A stretch of 20,951 bases of DNA from positions 26,418 to 47,368 of the forward strand of contig DBDH01000102.1 in the NCBI GenBank assembly GCA_002293455.1, written 5' to 3'. Position numbers and translations under genes: made by a program. The notes beneath the pieces are model-generated. The model was not told where the DNA came from. It did not search any database and saw nothing but the letters and a program-made list of their open reading frames with translations. This DNA comes from Treponema sp. UBA937 (GTDB taxonomy: Bacteria > Spirochaetota > Spirochaetia > Treponematales > Breznakiellaceae). Positions 2,869 through 10,276 of this stretch are shown here, piece by piece (the first letter of the stretch is position 1; each line of letters opens with the position of its first letter).

Positions 2869-2953
2869 GATTTTGAGAATGCCGCGAAATTACAAAGCAA
2901 TTGATTGGAATGCAATTGTGGTTCATATCCCTTCCACAACATCATTTCTTTAC

Positions 2954-2982
2954 TTGTCAAGATGCTGATCATGTTATAAAAT
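2954..2982 (+). promoter_or_regulatory. sigma70-like promoter (TTGTCA-17nt-TAAAAT) firing into the tRNA-like array
   Basis: -35 TTGTCA at 2954-2959, 17-nt spacer, -10 TAAAAT at 2977-2982; predicted TSS about 2989, roughly 60 nt before the first tRNA-like unit. Confidence 0.4.
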
Positions 2983-3050
2983 ACTTATGATGTTATGGCG
3001 CAGGTCATAATGTCGCCTATTCGCTTTAGCAAAGGATTTGTATTCCTTGC

Positions 3051-3132
3051 GGCGCAGTCGGGCTCTGCCTTTCTGTGTTCCGGGTGAATAGGATTCAGGG
3101 CAAAGGCCGGCGGTTCAAATCCGTCCATCGAA
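3051..3132 (+). pseudogene. tRNA-like remnant 1 (D-arm-like GCAG-TCGGGCT-CTGC and T-arm GGCGG-TTCAAAT-CCGTC; no acceptor or anticodon pairing)
   Basis: T-arm at 3109-3125 closely resembles that of the intact tRNA-Pro at 5245-5261. Acceptor strands are not complementary. Confidence 0.35.
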
Positions 3133-3203
3133 AGATGCAGCTCAGCGGTAGAGCATTGTCCGCCAACACGGTAGTGTCGAAGGTTCAAATCCTTCACTCT
3201 CAC
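3131..3203 (+). pseudogene. tRNA-like remnant 2 (canonical D-arm and perfect T-arm, non-canonical anticodon arm, unpaired acceptor)
   Basis: D-arm GCTC-AGCGGTA-GAGC (3140-3154); T-arm GAAGG-TTCAAAT-CCTTC (3179-3195). The 5-prime (AAAGATG) and 3-prime (ACTCTCA) acceptor strands do not pair. No 7-nt loop with U33 and purine-37 is available. Confidence 0.4.
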
Positions 3204-3262
3204 GAGTTAGCTCAGTTGGTAGAGCATACCAATGTTTCATGGGTTCGAATCCCATACTCTTT
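3201..3262 (+). pseudogene. tRNA-like remnant 3 (D-arm and T-arm present; anticodon arm deleted, about 10 nt short)
   Basis: D-arm GCTC-AGTTGGTA-GAGC (3210-3225) and T-arm ATGGG-TTCGAAT-CCCAT (3239-3255) are separated by only 13 nt (normal is about 23). Acceptor pairs 4 of 7. Followed by TTTTT. Confidence 0.4.
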
Positions 3263-3270
3263 TTAACGAA

Positions 3271-3336
3271 GGAGTTAGCCAAGCGGATAAGGCACAGGTC
3301 TCATAAACCTGCAACATTACACTTCCACAGTGTAAC
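3271..3336 (+). pseudogene. tRNA-like remnant 4 (type-II-like 5-prime part with CAT anticodon arm and long variable-arm hairpin, but no T-arm)
   Basis: GGAGTTA; 3-bp D-stem GCC-AAGCGGATAA-GGC; perfect anticodon arm CAGGT-CTCATAA-ACCTG (U33, A37, anticodon CAT); variable hairpin TTACACT-TCCAC-AGTGTAA. Then a purine-rich GAAGAAAGAAGAAG instead of a T-arm. Confidence 0.4.
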
Positions 3337-3360
3337 GAAGAAAGAAGAAGCGAAAACGTC

Positions 3361-3473
3361 CTGCCGTGCGGTTTGTGCGCGGCAGCGGAAACCGGGCAGC
3401 AGCGGAGCGGATACCGCAAAACTGCCGCACATCCCATAGCCATGATGTGTCATGGAAGCCGAATGCGCGGCAG
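3361..3473 (+). other. GC-rich block of nested inverted repeats (possible structured leader or ncRNA) upstream of the SPFH gene
   Basis: Hairpin CTGCCGTGCG...GCGCGGCAG (3361-3385). Outer stem CTGCCGCACAT (3422-3432) pairs with ATGCGCGGCAG (3463-3473) with one mismatch. Inner stem CCATGA-TGTG-TCATGG (3440-3455). Confidence 0.3.
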
Positions 3474-3546
3474 ATTGCTCAAACTCTGTTCCCCTTGGGG
3501 ACCGTGGACGTTTCCGCCGATTCCCCCAACAAACGAGGTGAACATT

Positions 3547-4656
3547 ATGAAGGTTATTATCAATGAAAATGAGAGAGGCTTTCTTTTCAAAAACGGTACG
3601 TTCCGGCGTATGCTGCCTCCCGGTAAACACAGCGTTCGGTCTCTCTTCGGCGAGACGTATGTTAAAACCACTGTCGGAAGACAAGTTGTGATCAAAGATA
3701 TTGACATCAATGTACTGCTAAAAGATAAAGCCTTTGCCGAGAGCGTTACCAAAATTGAACTGCCCGATGTGCATTACGCAATGCACTATGAAGACGGCAT
3801 CGCAATTGAAGGGATGTCTACTCCCGGTACGTACTACTATTGGAATGTATTTCATGAGCATACGTTTCAACTGATCGATATAAAGAATCCTGTTGTTGCG
3901 CTGCCAGAAGAAAAAATGGCGAGAGTGCCGACCAGTTTTTATTCACGCTTTGTTGTATCGGAAGGCGAAACCGGATTGCTGTTTTTTGACGGAAAATTCC
4001 AGCGGCAGCTTGATCCCGGCTCTTATTATTTTTGGAATACGTTTGTAAAAGTGACCTGCGAGATTGTCGATGTACGTACCCAGCAGCTCGACGTAAACAG
4101 TCAGGAAATTTTGACGGCGGATAAAGTGACGCTCCGCTTGAATTTTGTCTGTACCTATAAAATCACCGACGCGGTAAGCATTCATAACAAACTGAAAGAT
4201 TTTAAAAATCAGATTTACATGACGACACAGCTTGTGCTTCGGGAATATGTCGGCCGCTTAAAGTTTGATGAGCTTTTGGAGCAGAAAGACAACATTGCGG
4301 GAATCGTTCTTGAAAAATTGAGGGAAAAGCAAAACAGCCTTTTCGTGGAATTCTCGGATGCGGGTTTAAAAGATATTATTCTTCCCGGTGAAATCAGAGA
4401 TATTATGAATATGGTTTTGATCGCGGAAAAAAATGCTCAGGCAAATGTAATTTCCCGTAGAGAGGAAGTTGCTTCAACCAGAAGCCTTTTGAATACCGCA
4501 AAATTGATGGAAGAAAACGTGACACTGTATAAACTGAAAGAGTTGGAATATCTTGAAAAGATTTGCGATAAAGTCGGCAATATTTCTGTCGGCAGCGGCA
4601 ATTTGCTTGGACAGCTTGGAGAAATTTTGACGGCAAAAAATCACAAAGATTCATAG
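3547..4656 (+). CDS. SPFH/band-7 (stomatin/prohibitin-like) domain protein with duplicated N-terminal beta-rich module
   Basis: True start likely the ATG at 3547 (GAGGTG 6 nt upstream); the ORF-track extension from 3373 lies in the GC-rich repeat region. The C-terminal half has a typical SPFH pattern (ILTADKVTLRLNFVCTYKITD..., GEIRDIMNMVLIAEKNAQANVI). The N-terminus carries two tandem copies of an E-x-E-x-G-LF-x-G-x-F-R-x-L-x-PG motif. Confidence 0.65.
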   Translation: MKVIINENERGFLFKNGTFRRMLPPGKHSVRSLFGETYVKTTVGRQVVIKDIDINVLLKDKAFAESVTKIELPDVHYAMHYEDGIAIEGMSTPGTYYYWNVFHEHTFQLIDIKNPVVALPEEKMARVPTSFYSRFVVSEGETGLLFFDGKFQRQLDPGSYYFWNTFVKVTCEIVDVRTQQLDVNSQEILTADKVTLRLNFVCTYKITDAVSIHNKLKDFKNQIYMTTQLVLREYVGRLKFDELLEQKDNIAGIVLEKLREKQNSLFVEFSDAGLKDIILPGEIRDIMNMVLIAEKNAQANVISRREEVASTRSLLNTAKLMEENVTLYKLKELEYLEKICDKVGNISVGSGNLLGQLGEILTAKNHKDS

Positions 4657-4665
4657 GAGGAATAT

Positions 4666-5010
4666 ATGCTTATTGAACGAAGCGCGATGAAAACCGAGAC
4701 CAAGGAAAAAATGCGGGGCGGCGAAGGTTCTGCGCATTTTACCCACATTGTAGACGGTGATAAAATCCCTCACGCAAGGATGATGGCTGAAATTGTTTTG
4801 CAGCCCGGCAGTTCTATCGGTGAACATGTTCATGAGAAAGAAACCGAATATTACATCATCCTTCGGGGGACCGGCACTGTTACTGACAACGGAGTATCGA
4901 AAACGATAAGACCCGGCGATGTGATGATCACGGGCGGCGGCGCGTCTCACAGTATCATGAATACCGGGAACGAAGATTTGGTGTTTCACGCAATGATCAT
5001 TTTGGATTGA
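4666..5010 (+). CDS. cupin-domain protein (RmlC-like cupin, metal-binding His motifs)
   Basis: 114 aa; G-x5-HxH-x3-E...G...H pattern (GSSIGEHVHEKETEYYIIL ... GGGASHSIMN). A strong RBS GGAGG lies 5-9 nt upstream, 9 nt after the SPFH stop, suggesting co-transcription. Confidence 0.7.
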   Translation: MLIERSAMKTETKEKMRGGEGSAHFTHIVDGDKIPHARMMAEIVLQPGSSIGEHVHEKETEYYIILRGTGTVTDNGVSKTIRPGDVMITGGGASHSIMNTGNEDLVFHAMIILD

Positions 5011-5365: not shown

Positions 5366-6877
5366 ATGGAAATTCGAGACCGATACGCTCCCTCTCCTAC
5401 CGGGAACCAGCATATTGGCGGGGTGAGAACCGCTCTTTTTAACTATCTTTTTGCGAAATCAAAGGGCGGGAAGTTTATCCTCCGTCTGGAGGATACCGAC
5501 CGTACCCGCTTTGACGAAGCTTTTGTCCAAAACCTTTATGACACCTTCAATTGGCTCAACATTCATTGGGATGAAGGTCCTGATATTGGCGGTCCCTCAT
5601 CGCCTTATGTACAATCCGAACGCTTTGAACTCTATAAAAAAGCGGCGGAGGAATTGATCGCAAAAGGAAAGGCTTACCGGTGTTTTTGTTCATCTGAAAG
5701 GCTCGATAACATCCGGGCGGAACGGGAAGCATCCGGCTCCAGCGAGACCGGCTACGACCGGCACTGCCGATCTGTCAGCGCGGAAGAATCCGGGCGGCGG
5801 GCGGCGGCGGGCGAATCTTTTGTTATCAGGCTCAACATTCCCCTGGAAGAATCTACGAAGTTTCACGATCATATCCTTGGGGACATTGAGTGGAAAAACG
5901 CGGACGTAAATCCCGATCCCGTACTCCTTAAATCTGACGGTTTTCCCACGTATCATTTAGCAAATGTGGTGGATGATCATCTTATGAATATCAGCCACGT
6001 GCTTCGCGCGCAGGAATGGATTCCGTCAACGCCGCTTCATGTCATTATGTACCGCGCTTTTGGGTGGACGCCGCCGGAATACTGTCACCTCCCTATGGTG
6101 ATGGGTCAGGACGGGAAAAAGCTCAGTAAACGCCACGGAGCCACAAGCATTGACGAGTTTCGGAAAGCCGGATACCTTCCGGAAGCCCTTATCAACTATG
6201 TCGCGCTTCTCGGGGCTTCCTACGAAGAAGGAAAAGAAATCTACACGCTCGAAGAACTCGCGGAACGCTTCAGCCTTGATAAACTCAACAAAGCTCCCGC
6301 CATTTTCGATTATAAAAAACTGGAATGGTATAACGGTCAATATATCCGCATGATGACCGATGAAGCGCTGGCGGAAGCCGCTCTCCCTTACGCAGTAAAG
6401 GCCGCTCTCTTCGGCAGTTCCGGCGCAGCCGCCGTTCCCTCCGCCGAACAGAAAAAAACATTTATCGCAGCGATGCCGCTCATAAGAGAAAGAATCAGTT
6501 TCCTGCATGAAGCCCCTGAAAAATTAGCGTATCTTTTTTCAGAACCGCCGGTTCCCGCGGCGGAAGAATTTATCCCCAAAAAAGCCGATCTCGCGCGGAC
6601 CGCTGAACTTCTCAGCCTTGGCCGCGGTTTGATAGAACCAATGGCGGTCCTCAATGATGCCGACGCGGAAGCGTATATCAAATCATGGTGCGAAGAACAT
6701 GATATTAAGCTGGGTGATATTATGATGCCCCTCCGTGTCGCCATAACGCGCGCCAGGGTCAGCCCTCCCCTTTTCGGTTCCATCCGCATCCTTGGAGCAA
6801 AGCAGTCCCTCGAAAGAATTGACGCGGCGCTTGGAACTTTGCGGGCGGCGCTTGAAACCTCAAAGGAAACCCGATGA
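5366..6877 (+). CDS. gltX: glutamyl-tRNA synthetase (class I aaRS)
   Basis: HIGH motif PSPTGNQHIGG near the N-terminus; KMSKS variant KLSKRHG. Start chosen at the ATG with AACGGAG 7 nt upstream. Confidence 0.9.
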   Translation: MEIRDRYAPSPTGNQHIGGVRTALFNYLFAKSKGGKFILRLEDTDRTRFDEAFVQNLYDTFNWLNIHWDEGPDIGGPSSPYVQSERFELYKKAAEELIAKGKAYRCFCSSERLDNIRAEREASGSSETGYDRHCRSVSAEESGRRAAAGESFVIRLNIPLEESTKFHDHILGDIEWKNADVNPDPVLLKSDGFPTYHLANVVDDHLMNISHVLRAQEWIPSTPLHVIMYRAFGWTPPEYCHLPMVMGQDGKKLSKRHGATSIDEFRKAGYLPEALINYVALLGASYEEGKEIYTLEELAERFSLDKLNKAPAIFDYKKLEWYNGQYIRMMTDEALAEAALPYAVKAALFGSSGAAAVPSAEQKKTFIAAMPLIRERISFLHEAPEKLAYLFSEPPVPAAEEFIPKKADLARTAELLSLGRGLIEPMAVLNDADAEAYIKSWCEEHDIKLGDIMMPLRVAITRARVSPPLFGSIRILGAKQSLERIDAALGTLRAALETSKETR

Positions 6878-7782
6878 ACATCCGTGTAATAGAAATTCCG
6901 CTCGACTTCGGCGCAAGCCGCCGCGGCAGTGACATGGGGCCGTCCGCGATGCGGCTTGCGGGACTAAAACAAGAACTCAATAATCTGGGACATGAAAGTG
7001 AAGAACTCTTTCCCGGTATTCCTGTTCCGTCCCAGGAATTTCTGGAAATGGGTGATGAAAAAGCAAAGTATCTTGTGCCGATTGCCGAAGTTTGCGGAAA
7101 GCTCGCGAAAGAAGTTGAACGATGCATAGATGAAAAACTGTTTCCGCTCGTTCTCGGCGGCGATCATTCAATAGCGATAGGAACCCTTTCCGGGCTTGGT
7201 TCCGCATATAAAAAAAGAAACAAACGCTGGGGAACGCTCTGGGTGGATGCTCACGGCGATTTTAACACACCTGAAAGTACTTTGTCGGGAAACATTCACG
7301 GCATGTCTTTGGCCGCGCCCTGCGGTTACGGCCGTAAAGAATTGACAGCACTCCACGGTGATTTCCGGAAGCTGGATCCCAAGAATACGGCAATTGTCGG
7401 TGTCCGCGACCTTGACCCAAAAGAAAAAATCACTATGAAGGAAGCGGGGCTTTCGGTTTTTACGATGACCGATGTTGACCGTTTGGGAATCGCTGAAACA
7501 GCCAAACAGATCGTGCAATTTTTTAAAGATCGTGTGGATGTTCTTCATGTCAGTGTGGACATGGACGCCATGGACCCCATGACAGCGCCCGGCGTGGGAA
7601 TTCCGCTCTCAGGCGGATTTTCCTACCGCGAAGTGCTTTTCCTTGCGGAAACCCTTGCGGCATCCTCCCTGATAGGTTCAATCGAAATTGTAGAAGTAAA
7701 TCCGGTGCTCGACGTGAAAAACCAAACCGCCCGGATGGCAGTAGAGATAATAAGCAGGCTTTTAGGCGGAACTATTTATTAG
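6874..7782 (+). CDS. rocF: arginase (ureohydrolase family)
   Basis: Motifs GGDHSIAIG, VWVDAHGDFNTPESTLSGNIHGMSLA, SVDMDAMDPMTAPGVG, GGFSYRE. Collinear with Bacillus arginase from memory. Its start overlaps the gltX stop (ATGA). Confidence 0.85.
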   Translation: MNIRVIEIPLDFGASRRGSDMGPSAMRLAGLKQELNNLGHESEELFPGIPVPSQEFLEMGDEKAKYLVPIAEVCGKLAKEVERCIDEKLFPLVLGGDHSIAIGTLSGLGSAYKKRNKRWGTLWVDAHGDFNTPESTLSGNIHGMSLAAPCGYGRKELTALHGDFRKLDPKNTAIVGVRDLDPKEKITMKEAGLSVFTMTDVDRLGIAETAKQIVQFFKDRVDVLHVSVDMDAMDPMTAPGVGIPLSGGFSYREVLFLAETLAASSLIGSIEIVEVNPVLDVKNQTARMAVEIISRLLGGTIY

Positions 7783-8686
7783 GCTCCGCAGGAGGATACG
7801 CGTTAAACAGAGCCATCATTCCCGGCTTATTAAAAAGGGCGGCGTATTTCCTTGCGCTGGCTCCCAGAGCATCCGGATCATCAGCATTGGCGCCGGCTTT
7901 TAAAAGTTCGGCGGCGATTGTTTCATCATTCAGCCCGACCGCAATAACCAGGGCCGATTGACCGTCTTTGCTCCTTATGTTTACATCCACGCCAGCGGAA
8001 ATCAAATCCGTTACAATATCCAAAGACCTTCCCATACAGGCGTCAATCAAGGCCGAACTCCCCCTGTCATGCGACTGCTGGTTGATCTGGGCTCCGCCTT
8101 CAAGAAGAATCTTAACCATCAGCCTGTTACCCGTCCGGGCCGCCAGGTTCAAAAGCGGAACACCATTTGTATCCATTGCGTCCGGCAAAAAACCCGCTTT
8201 CAAAAACAATTCGGCAGCCCAGGTATTTTCTTCCCGAATACACCGCTCAAAAGATTCTTCGTTATAAGGAATTCCTATCGCTAAAAGATCATTTCTCGCC
8301 TGTTTTTGTACATCCTTGGCAATCCATACATGGAAATCTCCATTCAAAAAGACTTCCAAATCTTTTATGCTGTCACAAATCTTGATTTCATCGGAGCGGC
8401 TCGTATGAATATACGAAGGTTTGCGCCCAATTATAATAACAGGATTTTTAATACCAAAAGCATAGCCTAAACAAAGGCTTTCCCATGCTGTATCGGGATT
8501 AATAGCATTAATTATGACAAAAAGAGAAAATTCAGCAAAAATGTCTAAAAAATCATCTTTTTTCTTCCAATTTGGTCCAAATGACCTGGCACGAACATAA
8601 AGCGATCTTTCTGTAAGCAAACGCACCACTGCTTGAAGATGTTCCGATTCTTTTGCGTCATGAAGCACTAATATTTTCAACACCAT
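7772..8686 (-). CDS. TIR-like N-terminal domain fused to ankyrin repeats
   Basis: N-terminal ~130 aa parallel bacterial TIR domains from memory: LKILVLHDAKESEHLQAVVRLL vs YDLFISHASEDKEFVRPLAEAL; EFSLFVIINAINPDTAWESLCLGYAF vs SRFGVVVLSPNF..NWPQYELNGLV; NPVIIIG vs HKVILPI. C-terminal half (about 7816-8180) has 3-4 ankyrin repeats (G-xPLL-xAA-xG-x-x-V-x-LL-xGA). Lower GC by eye. Convergent 11-nt overlap with the arginase 3-prime end. Confidence 0.55.
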   Translation of the reverse strand: MVLKILVLHDAKESEHLQAVVRLLTERSLYVRARSFGPNWKKKDDFLDIFAEFSLFVIINAINPDTAWESLCLGYAFGIKNPVIIIGRKPSYIHTSRSDEIKICDSIKDLEVFLNGDFHVWIAKDVQKQARNDLLAIGIPYNEESFERCIREENTWAAELFLKAGFLPDAMDTNGVPLLNLAARTGNRLMVKILLEGGAQINQQSHDRGSSALIDACMGRSLDIVTDLISAGVDVNIRSKDGQSALVIAVGLNDETIAAELLKAGANADDPDALGASARKYAALFNKPGMMALFNAYPPAEPNK

Positions 8687-8995: not shown

Positions 8996-10255
8996 CTACA
9001 TTTTTAACTTATCCAATGTCAAGTTTTTGAATTTTTTTATCGATTCCGCTCCCGGATCCAAAACAAGAGCGCTTTCGCAGTCAGACAAAGCCTTGGGATA
9101 ATCATTAAGATGAAAATACGCCTGCCCTCTTCTGAACAAGCAATAAGATTGATAAGGATTAATCTCTAAAGAATACGTAAAATCATCGATAGCCTTCACA
9201 TAATCCTGCAGCACTGAATAAACAATTCCCCGGTAATACGGAGCTCTGTAAGCCTTGGGGTCGAATTCCAAAACCCTGGAAAAATCATCGATGGCTTCCT
9301 GATATTTTGACTGAGCAAAAAAAGCCATTCCGCGGTGTTTATAAATAAGGGCCTTAATCACATCCGGCGGATTCAACTCAAATATTTTGCTGTATATTTT
9401 TACCGCCATGCCGAATTCGTTTTTATTGTGCGCGTACAGAGCATTCAGAAGCATATCATCAATGGAAGCGCCTGACGCGGGATAATCCAGACTTGAAGGA
9501 TCGATAAACGTATCATCTTCACGATACTTATCGTCTTGGAGAGCTGCTTTCTCATCAAAAAAGATAATCTCATCCGAAAAGTTATCAACTTTATGATAAA
9601 AAGTACCTCTTCGTTTATCCAACTGCCGGTTTAATCGGCGCTGATAGTCCCGAATTTCCTGAAATATGGTATCCGCCAATGAAAGAGACGCGTTTACCGC
9701 CGCCAGTTTTCGTTTTAAAGGAGTATCAAAAGGATTAAAATCAGCTTTGTACACCAATTCATGTTCAACTTCCGCCCACGCGTCCTGCAAAATCGTTCTA
9801 ATTTGAACTTCCGCGGCGTCCGTACCAAAATCTCCATATTTTTCCAAAATATGCGGAGGGATTTTTATGATGACATGCGTTGATTCATAGCCGAACTCTT
9901 TAAAAGAATAGTCCGATCCTTTGCGTTCTATCTCGATGATCTCAAAATTTTTTTTCAGGATTTCTTCAACATGACGCAGATCTTCCATGAAGGGACAAAT
10001 AACCCGAATTCCCATAAGATCGGCAACAAAAGGCTGTTCATCCTTGGAAGGAGAATTCTTTAACAGTCTGATATATTTTTTAAAAAAACTATTAAAATCC
10101 TTTACGCGGCTCTTAATGGAAGGAAGCGAAGGAAGCTCTTTGAGCAACAATGCAATGTCTTCGTGAAGTTCTTTTACGACGAGTATTCTTACATCACTAT
10201 GTTTATAAAATTTTTCTTGCAGCCGGCCTTTGTCAGGTAATTCTCCATTTTGCAT
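8996..10255 (-). CDS. RelA/SpoT-family small alarmone synthetase (SAS) domain fused to C-terminal TPR repeats
   Basis: Synthetase core LMGIRVICPF...YESTHVIIKIP...AEVQIRTILQDAWAEVEHELVYK matches the RelQ/RelP-type EIQIRT..W..EH..YK signature; no HD hydrolase domain. The C-terminal ~150 aa have 3-4 TPR units (AIDDF...LE.DP.....YYRG). Start taken at the ATG at 10255 (AAGGG 8 nt upstream); the ORF track's GTG at 10264 is an alternative. AT-rich by eye. Confidence 0.65.
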   Translation of the reverse strand: MQNGELPDKGRLQEKFYKHSDVRILVVKELHEDIALLLKELPSLPSIKSRVKDFNSFFKKYIRLLKNSPSKDEQPFVADLMGIRVICPFMEDLRHVEEILKKNFEIIEIERKGSDYSFKEFGYESTHVIIKIPPHILEKYGDFGTDAAEVQIRTILQDAWAEVEHELVYKADFNPFDTPLKRKLAAVNASLSLADTIFQEIRDYQRRLNRQLDKRRGTFYHKVDNFSDEIIFFDEKAALQDDKYREDDTFIDPSSLDYPASGASIDDMLLNALYAHNKNEFGMAVKIYSKIFELNPPDVIKALIYKHRGMAFFAQSKYQEAIDDFSRVLEFDPKAYRAPYYRGIVYSVLQDYVKAIDDFTYSLEINPYQSYCLFRRGQAYFHLNDYPKALSDCESALVLDPGAESIKKFKNLTLDKLKM

Positions 10256-10276
10256 CAATAACACCCTTCAGATGAA

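Follow-up and report, generated by a model that had tools for sequence, protein, structure and literature searches.

Introduction

Permuted tRNA genes of the red alga Cyanidioschyzon merolae encode the 3' half of the tRNA upstream of the 5' half, with a loop at the acceptor end, and mature to decoding tRNAs with fixed anticodons. A permuted tRNA-like domain is also found in the bacterial YrlA RNAs (RF02553), where a variable region is followed by the T-arm, a loop-closed acceptor stem, the D-arm, and a closing stem at the anticodon-stem position (PMC4201824). Chen et al. 2014 (PMC4201824) define YrlA by this T-AS-D tRNA-like domain together with a GNCGAAN0-1G Rsr-binding motif close to the 5' end, a nearby rsr gene, and modification of the tRNA type. 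Its partner is Ro60/Rsr, and in M. smegmatis, YrlA is cleaved by RNase P and acquires CCA in vivo. Here we describe an RNA built from several permuted tRNA-like modules in a 20,951-nucleotide stretch of Treponema sp. UBA937 (assembly GCA_002293455.1, contig DBDH01000102.1, positions 26,418 to 47,368 of the forward strand), the whole of which is hereafter called the window. The RNA lies directly upstream of a gene for an SPFH/Band-7 protein.

A tRNA-like RNA next to RtcB and a Band-7 gene, the b7a-tRNA, was predicted by Burroughs and Aravind 2016, as quoted in Wang et al. 2018 (bioRxiv 10.1101/312249). According to that quotation, it "strongly resembles an authentic tRNA" and was suggested to serve an SPFH scaffold as its cognate RNA, in the way that Y RNA serves Ro60; the same source describes it as without validation as of 2018 and reports that YrlA is often linked to RtcB operons and occasionally stands beside a Band-7 gene. 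PaFlo8, an SPFH gene, lies within the rtc locus of Pseudomonas aeruginosa.

The anatomy, conservation, and covariation of the region from about 2990 to 3517 of the window identify it as one structured non-coding RNA of roughly 530 nt, predicted to be transcribed. It is well preserved and unusually elaborate in architecture, and the class to which it belongs, tRNA-mimicking RNAs associated with RtcB/SPFH, is poorly characterised and uncurated; its family matches the RNA of Burroughs and Aravind 2016 as far as the quotation describes it. Like b7a-tRNA, it is a tRNA-like RNA beside a Band-7/SPFH gene. The RtcB-operon setting is absent from the window and present in relatives, including those at 80-81% SPFH identity; judged from the quotation only, b7a-tRNA also differs in that the units described here are mostly permuted and stand in a multi-module RNA of ~530 nt with large 5' and 3' domains. 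We infer, with a probability of about 60%, that the RNA, one of a family of tRNA mimics locked to SPFH genes, would bind the SPFH protein as a partner or scaffold and take part in an RNA-repair or stress system.

An earlier note on this DNA had taken 2954-3340 for a promoter-driven array of four degenerate tRNA-like units. It was right in spirit about a promoter-driven, tRNA-like RNA, the element being functional-looking and tRNA-mimicking with a conserved promoter. The framing as decay was wrong, since the units are conserved with covariation, and the end at 3340 was set too early, since conserved structure spans about 2990 to 3517.

Three permuted tRNA-like modules in tandem

Four matches to the T-loop string GGTTCRAATCC are found in the window (0.07 expected by chance), three of them in the array, at 3112-3122, 3182-3192, and 3242-3252, and the fourth in the tRNA-Pro gene. 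Three D-arm strings lie in the same region, so the three T-arms and three D-arms of the earlier note are indeed present (Table 1). ARAGORN called only tRNA-Asp, tRNA-Pro, and tRNA-Phe in the window and no tRNA in 2950-3350, which agrees with the claim that the array holds no legal tRNA. The accompanying expectation that tRNA searches would return nothing or a pseudogene held for ARAGORN and failed for the Rfam tRNA model, which matched 3201-3263 at 36.1 bits, above its gathering score of 29, in an alignment that has no anticodon arm. We judged this match a false positive, as it straddles two modules, has no anticodon arm, and brings together acceptor strands that pair only at 57%. The array does not have the cloverleaf order of a canonical tRNA gene.

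The reading register was decided by the acceptor strands of adjacent modules, which pair at 99% in the permuted register and at 57% in the register of the earlier note, thereby ruling out the latter. The four units had joined the D-arm of one module to the T-arm of the next, and for this reason the acceptor strands looked unpaired and the anticodon arms seemed lost. On the sequence evidence, the array consists of three tRNA-like modules in tandem (M1, M2, and M3) with the circular permutation of YrlA, each running from T-arm through closed acceptor hairpin to D-arm and opened at the position of the anticodon or variable region. As in the red-algal genes, the T-arm and acceptor 3' strand precede the acceptor 5' strand and D-arm. 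The CAT anticodon-like arm and the 7-bp hairpin that had been ascribed to a fourth unit are both present, the former as a part of M3. The only repeats in the array are the T-arm consensus and a 70-nt module period. The earlier observation that the first T-arm matches tRNA-Pro at 15 of 17 positions is correct, and the match amounts to no more than the T-arm consensus.

Forty-five module instances, selected by the presence of T-arm, acceptor, and D-arm hairpins, were aligned with MAFFT without fitting to any structure. Standard pairs filled 89.8% of the cells, compared with 36-45% when partners were slid, a figure inflated for the T-arm, acceptor, and D-arm helices because these hairpins were the basis of selection. 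The closing stem, which played no part in the choice, is paired in 68% of its cells, and 5 of its 5 pairs covary. The covariation score was 0.70 against 0.19 in shuffles, and all four helices contain compensatory changes on both sides. Signature tRNA nucleotides are kept in the modules, including a U8-like T, the D-loop GG, the T-loop TTCRA, and a C48-like C. A covariance model of the permuted module (R2) matches the window modules by construction, since M1, M2, and M3 are seed members; independent orthologous modules in the related loci L072, L073, L152, and L153 scored 56-78 bits, and the genuine tandem-tRNA junction of the window (tRNA-Asp to tRNA-Pro) only 28 bits, compared with 56-72 for the modules. 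Each module is thus predicted to be a well-formed permuted tRNA-like domain under purifying selection for structure.

Two candidate pairings were rejected. A minimum-free-energy fold of 2985-3350 contained a long closing stem (3015-3026/3281-3294) that is contradicted by the comparative data: its 3' strand is the near-invariant class-II D-arm, while its variable 5' strand covaries with 3082-3091 to form P2. In the window, AATGTT (3232-3237) and AACATT (3313-3318) can form a closing stem for M3; the pairing is not kept in L004 and was taken as chance.

Table 1. Elements of the RNA and the genes that follow it, in window coordinates.
Feature	Position	Strand	Evidence or remark
Sigma-70-type promoter-like site, -35 TTGTCA, 17-nt spacer, -10 TAAAAT	2954-2982	+	Consensus scan
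5' domain, hairpin and three-way junction	2990-3091	+	RNAalifold, 10 sequences: 34 pairs, 16 with compensatory changes
P1 hairpin	2990-3013	+	Loop is a GNRA tetraloop in most relatives
P2, closes three-way junction	3017-3026/3082-3091	+	
P3	3029-3036/3044-3050	+	
P4	3052-3078	+	
M1, permuted tRNA-like module	3098-3162	+	Partial Rfam YrlA match, 24.4 bits; R2, 57.2 bits
M1 closing stem GGGCAA/TTGTCC	3098-3103/3157-3162	+	
M1 T-arm	3109-3125	+	
M1 acceptor hairpin CATC-GAAA-GATG	3126-3137	+	Compensatory change in L072 (CTTC/GAAG)
M1 D-arm	3140-3154	+	
M2, permuted tRNA-like module	3168-3232	+	Partial Rfam YrlA match, 29.3 bits; R2, 71.5 bits
M2 closing stem GGTA/TACC	3170-3173/3228-3231	+	
M2 T-arm	3179-3195	+	
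M2 acceptor hairpin ACTC-TCAC-GAGT	3196-3207	+	
M2 D-arm	3210-3225	+	
M3, complete tRNA-like unit permuted at variable loop	3232-3311	+	R2, 55.8 bits, closing stem unpaired
M3 T-arm	3239-3255	+	
M3 8-bp closed acceptor hairpin	3256-3275	+	
M3 class-II-type D-arm	3278-3293	+	
M3 anticodon-like arm, loop CUCAUAA	3295-3311	+	Stem covaries; loop frame Y32-U33-NNN-R37 kept
7-bp hairpin TTACACT-TCCAC-AGTGTAA	3317-3335	+	Conserved in A1 and A7; described earlier as a variable arm
3' domain, 168 nt, 9 helices	3350-3517	+	RNAalifold: 49 pairs, 36 with compensatory changes
3' domain closing long-range stem	3350-3361/3506-3517	+	
SPFH/Band-7 ("slipin family") gene, 369 aa	3547-4656	+	Pfam Band_7, E=8e-31
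Cupin gene	4666-5010	+	Pfam Cupin_2

Comparison with YrlA

A permissive Rfam scan gave partial YrlA matches at 3171-3231 and 3101-3162, confined to model positions 23-87/89, the tRNA-like core. These scores (29.3 and 24.4 bits) fall short of the gathering score of 69 bits, there was no gathering-level YrlA call in 12 relatives, and the Ro-binding stem (model positions 1-22 and 90-114) was unmatched. Within the RNA, the Rsr motif GNCGAAN0-1G was found only at 3176-3183 and 3458-3465, both internal and at positions not conserved in relatives; the window as a whole has 10 matches where 15.7 are expected. No TROVE/Rsr domain was found by Pfam in the 18 main long open reading frame (ORF) proteins of the window, nor was one among the conserved neighbour clusters of 68 related genome loci, although no explicit TROVE search of every locus was made.

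It is therefore highly improbable that the element is a bona fide Y RNA acting with a Ro60/Rsr encoded elsewhere, even though the module topology and many conserved nucleotides match YrlA and YrlA, too, is tied to RtcB operons. The permutation order is shared; however, YrlA has one module, whereas the window RNA has three in tandem (1-4 in the family) within roughly 530 nt that include two extra domains, and the partner gene here encodes an SPFH protein instead of Ro60/Rsr. In our assessment, the window RNA works like the YrlA tRNA mimic yet is no member of the YrlA family, because it has no 5' Rsr motif, no rsr nearby, and a score far below gathering.

The 5' and 3' domains

Two domains flank the modules. 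An iterated hidden Markov model located the 5' domain at about 27 genome loci, in each case immediately 5' to the first module. A model of the 3' domain (R1), whose alignment was cut from 196 to 174 positions, gave 37 matches at E <=0.001, all on the plus strand just upstream of an SPFH start. The invariant blocks of this domain include GGAUACCG, CCCAU, and CUCAA. On an alignment fitted to the model structure, and to be read with that in mind, 90% of cells were paired compared with 36-47% in slid controls, and 42 of 44 pairs had changed on both sides.

In Rfam 15, no family covers the RNA, and 12 related loci give only spurious inter-module tRNA matches; at about 400-600 nt, the family is among the larger covariation-supported bacterial RNAs that are without an Rfam entry. 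The Rfam tRNA model exceeds its gathering score on inter-module junctions, which combine the D-arm of one permuted module with the T-arm of the next, in the window (3201-3263), L004 (5429-5491), and L005 (5609-5659). Annotation pipelines are thus likely to label such RNAs as tRNA or pseudo-tRNA; with ARAGORN also reporting a "tRNA-Thr" in one relative, tandem permuted tRNA mimics can pass as pseudo-tRNAs or junk.

Mechanical ORFs of 60-100 aa overlap the RNA in the window at 2985-3203 (-), 3075-3266 (+), and 3237-3443 (-). Similar ones occur elsewhere, such as L001 5415-5708 (-) and its like in 24 loci, and they cluster across loci because the RNA itself is conserved. Gene-calling programs could report them as hypothetical proteins; one was called in L152 (7306-7689). 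Separately, AT-rich, poorly conserved inserts of 225-300 nt precede the SPFH start in L004 (5776-6000) and L016 (5704-6000) and may carry a separate SPFH promoter.

Distribution and gene linkage

With the SPFH protein as query, a scan of one genome per prokaryotic species (185,579 species genomes) returned 68 loci, and a metagenome scan added 80; the locus set overall comprises about 150 Bacillota and gut-metagenome loci. Neighbourhoods were counted over the 101 loci with at least 2 kb of upstream flank. The 68 genome loci are nearly all from Bacillota (Anaerocolumna, termite-gut and gut metagenome-assembled genomes, Lachnospiraceae, Paenibacillus), the closest named relative by SPFH is Anaerocolumna at 78% identity, and no Treponema was among the loci that the species-genome scan returned. 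The check suggested in the earlier note, a comparison with intact tRNAs at orthologous Treponema loci, is therefore without an object. Cultured carriers are Anaerocolumna, Blautia, Clostridium symbiosum, and Paenibacillus.

In most related loci, the tRNA-like RNA immediately precedes the SPFH gene and shares its strand. Conservation fills the whole intergenic region, from about 2990 to 3520 of the window and not just 2954-3340, and the architecture is conserved over SPFH divergence to about 45-50% identity. ORF clustering recovered a recurrent cassette in which two divergent WYL-type genes are followed by RtcB (Pfam E=1e-111), the RNA, and SPFH; in the first 68 genome loci, SPFH, RtcB, and the two WYL-type proteins were the only conserved neighbour clusters. 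RtcB stood directly upstream on the same strand in 64 of the 101 loci, and the WYL pair was present in 74.

The WYL-domain pair diverges from rtcB-RNA-SPFH (L001 1911-4281 and equivalents in about 74 loci); one protein has about 410-460 aa and the other about 330 aa with weak WYL and WCX matches. The pair resembles PafB/PafC and appears to replace the CARF regulator RtcR. Some loci without upstream RtcB, Paenibacillus loci among them, carry a distant RtcB paralogue downstream of SPFH with about 28-30% identity to the upstream type, located about 1.1 kb past the SPFH start in L034, L038, L041, and L053 and 4-6 kb past it in L040, L049, L054, and L066.

These comparative data refute the proposal that the region is an inert scar of decayed tRNA genes or stacked integrase att remnants. 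Two features would suit a scar, namely the position of tRNA-Asp and tRNA-Pro genes 1.7 kb downstream and the apparent horizontal acquisition of the cassette. Against this, the same arrangement recurs with the SPFH gene across many genera, down to about 45-50% SPFH identity and with compensatory substitutions in every helix; the window has no integrase and no att-like repeat beyond the T-arm consensus; and D-arms are present, whereas att scars keep only tRNA 3' ends.

Viral contigs scanned with the SPFH protein and phage genomes searched by blastn with the RNA gave no match. The PADLOC defence library produced one weak sub-significance match for the SPFH protein (E=0.007) and none for two neighbour proteins.

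Variation in the last unit and a possible tRNA precursor

Between one and four T-arm-bearing units occur per RNA, and distant loci (SPFH identity about 50% or less) mostly have one. In L004, L016, and L002, the anticodon-like arm and the 7-bp hairpin are separated by an additional variable-arm hairpin and a fourth T-arm, neither of which is seen in the window lineage; the anticodon-like arm is missing in L064, L005, and L001; and in L072 and L073 the M3 D-arm is swapped for a tRNA-Leu-like one. In the last unit, the anticodon-like loop keeps a canonical frame (Y32, U33, R37) on a covarying 5-bp stem. When this loop was compared among the window, L002, L004, L014, L016, L017, L072, L073, L074, and L153-L155, seven distinct triplets were found (CAT, TAG, TGG, AGG, GTC, TCA, AAA), with a single-base difference between L072 and L073. 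This variation could stem from relaxed or diversifying selection or from module swapping with tRNA genes.

The variation bears on the possibility that the RNA is a precursor of one or more circularly permuted functional tRNAs, which would mature through opening of the acceptor loop by RNase P/Z, CCA addition, and sealing of the ends by RtcB. In favour of this, no tRNA arm is missing from M3, whose acceptor stem has 8 bp and whose anticodon loop keeps the canonical frame; RtcB usually lies next to the RNA; and the in vivo processing of the M. smegmatis YrlA offers a precedent. In addition, ARAGORN calls a tRNA-Thr (AGT) in canonical order at L011 5548-5621, inside the homologous RNA and right after a permuted module; this unit may be the "b7a-tRNA" of the literature as quoted, and alternative pairings are possible because its acceptor 5' strand (ATTGATG) is a repeat of the closing-stem strand in the module before it. 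However, a decoding identity is unlikely because the anticodon-like triplet varies even among close relatives, in contrast to the fixed anticodons of the red-algal tRNAs. Two of the three modules (M1 and M2) lack an anticodon loop and have acceptor stems of only 4 bp, the anticodon-like arm is lost in some relatives, and the window lineage keeps the RNA without an adjacent RtcB. We consider a tRNA precursor very unlikely.

An apparently trimmed cassette in the spirochete

Two further copies, L072 and L073, come from metagenome assembly GCA_003324335.1, which also contains contigs with the exact window SPFH protein. They share 92% and 89% SPFH identity with the window and the same three-module RNA. 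Homology begins at the promoter (window about 2947), and the flanks upstream and downstream are unrelated, which places the promoter-RNA-SPFH-cupin cassette in three unrelated genomic contexts within one metagenome. The cupin gene follows SPFH only in the lineage of the window (L069-L073 among 151 loci). The SPFH-cupin segment (3547-5010) has a G+C content of 41-45%, lower than the 50-55% of its flanking genes, and neither an integrase nor a transposase is visible at the cassette. The next relatives, at 80-81% SPFH identity, have the full WYL-WYL / RtcB-RNA-SPFH cassette in Clostridia-like contexts, with three modules. A termite-gut spirochete thus appears to have gained, by horizontal transfer, a trimmed cassette of promoter, RNA, SPFH, and cupin that lacks the rtcB and WYL genes.

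The promoter claimed by the earlier note, TTGTCA-17-TAAAAT, is present at its place. Taken alone it is what chance provides (1 found, 1.0 expected); its weight comes from conservation, the hexamers being kept in the independent copies L072/L073 (TTGTCA/TAGTCA; TAAAAT/TAAGAT/TACAAT). Stems have changed in step between the window and these copies, as in the M1 acceptor (CATC/GATG vs CTTC/GAAG) and the anticodon-like stem (CAGGT/ACCTG vs CAAGA/TCTTG). The simplest reading of the compensatory stems and conserved promoter would be that the RNA structure is still under selection in this RtcB-less lineage. That the RNA-SPFH pair persists in a spirochete without an adjacent ligase, under structural selection, suggests that the pair is the functional core.

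A proposed partnership with the SPFH protein

The SPFH protein belongs to a large family annotated "slipin family protein", with >7,900 relatives at E <=1e-20. No transmembrane segment is evident in it (maximum 19-residue Kyte-Doolittle hydropathy, 0.92), and its N-terminal 130 aa are a partial duplication of the SPFH N-terminal strands. An AlphaFold2 model (pLDDT 82.5) consists of a beta domain, the SPFH domain, and long helices at 281-342. In Foldseek comparisons with cage-forming complexes, the model matched stomatin (E=6e-14), HflK/C, prohibitin, erlin, and flotillin; the alignment with the major vault protein (MVP) was full-length with a low TM-score (about 0.42). With cage-forming SPFH proteins, the window protein shares the Band_7/SPFH domain and long helix, without a membrane anchor. 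As a lead only, the predicted fold may support an oligomeric scaffold.

In the mechanism that we propose, the RNA would be transcribed from its own promoter in the window and within the rtcB operon elsewhere; most family members would be part of an rtcB-RNA-SPFH transcript under divergent WYL-type regulators. The RNA would bind the SPFH oligomer as its cognate partner or scaffold, by analogy with Y RNA and Ro60, and its L-shaped tRNA mimics would display elbows and acceptor-like stems for enzymes that recognise tRNA, among them RtcB, RNase P, and modification enzymes. During stress or toxin attack, the repair of cut tRNA and rRNA molecules could in this way be concentrated or regulated. For a soluble SPFH protein, and for bacterial RtcB with its poorly defined cellular substrates and cofactors, the family offers a candidate RNA partner.

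Several observations weigh against this partnership. RtcB and the WYL regulators are absent from the window, where the upstream gene encodes a LarA-family nickel epimerase, and a repair role in the spirochete would follow only by extension from the relatives; an rtcB gene could lie elsewhere in its genome. The equation with b7a-tRNA rests on a secondary quotation, which describes a near-authentic tRNA. The pairing figures profit from the selection of modules by their hairpins and from the fitting of the 3' domain alignment to its model. Finally, no intrinsic terminator was found between the RNA and the SPFH gene in the window, and without one to part them the RNA could act in cis.

The last point leads to a cis-acting 5' leader that would control SPFH expression, with the 3' domain, for example, as a sensor of tRNA-binding factors, RNA fragments, or a ligand. 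The RNA and SPFH are always co-oriented, the 3' domain ends about 30-60 nt before the start codon in most loci (30 nt in the window), and transcription from the window promoter would make the RNA the 5' untranslated region of the SPFH mRNA. However, L004, L016, L018, L059, and L063 have 225-450 nt of unconserved AT-rich spacer at this position, the RNA is very large and modular with a module count of 1 to 4, and tRNA mimicry with a preserved elbow is typical of RNAs that bind proteins or enzymes. A leader as the sole explanation seems unlikely to us; leader and partner roles are compatible and may coexist.

A more specific version of the partnership, which we regard as decidedly unlikely, is that the RNA would join the soluble SPFH protein in a vault-like ribonucleoprotein cage, in which the tRNA mimics would bait or sense tRNA-targeting toxins and RtcB would reseal the mimics or real tRNAs. 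The toxin-bait idea fits the last unit especially, because its anticodon-loop frame is canonical yet the triplet differs in seven versions. Vaults (MVP, the TROVE protein TEP1, and vault RNA) contain a small RNA, and with vault and SPFH cage proteins the window protein shares the order of beta domain, SPFH "shoulder", and long helix. The window protein has 369 aa, however, compared with about 800-900 aa in MVP, and both an oligomer and its RNA cargo are predictions here. Were the idea true, the cage would be a bacterial counterpart, possibly an ancestor, of vault/Y-RNA-type ribonucleoproteins, and SPFH cages, so far seen as membrane organisers, would be tied to RNA surveillance.

Further observations

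In Escherichia coli STEC639 (CP061233.1; L156), a "slipin family protein" gene with 34% identity to the window SPFH has a nucleotidyltransferase gene after it. Upstream, at 5670-5850, a sigma-54-like TGGCAC-N5-TCGCA precedes a T-arm (ATGGGTTCGATTCCCAC) and a 7-bp hairpin; this upstream region has no clear D-arm and gave no Rfam or ARAGORN call. R2 scored 14 bits on this locus, for the T-arm only, and in view of this weak score a proteobacterial version would be too divergent for R2. The region may be such a divergent version of the SPFH-linked tRNA-like RNA.

Elsewhere in the window, a gene unrelated to the RNA (8996-10264, minus strand) encodes a small-alarmone-synthetase-type RelA_SpoT domain fused to multiple TPR repeats, an unusual combination; it is adjoined by an ankyrin-repeat protein gene at 7772-8686.

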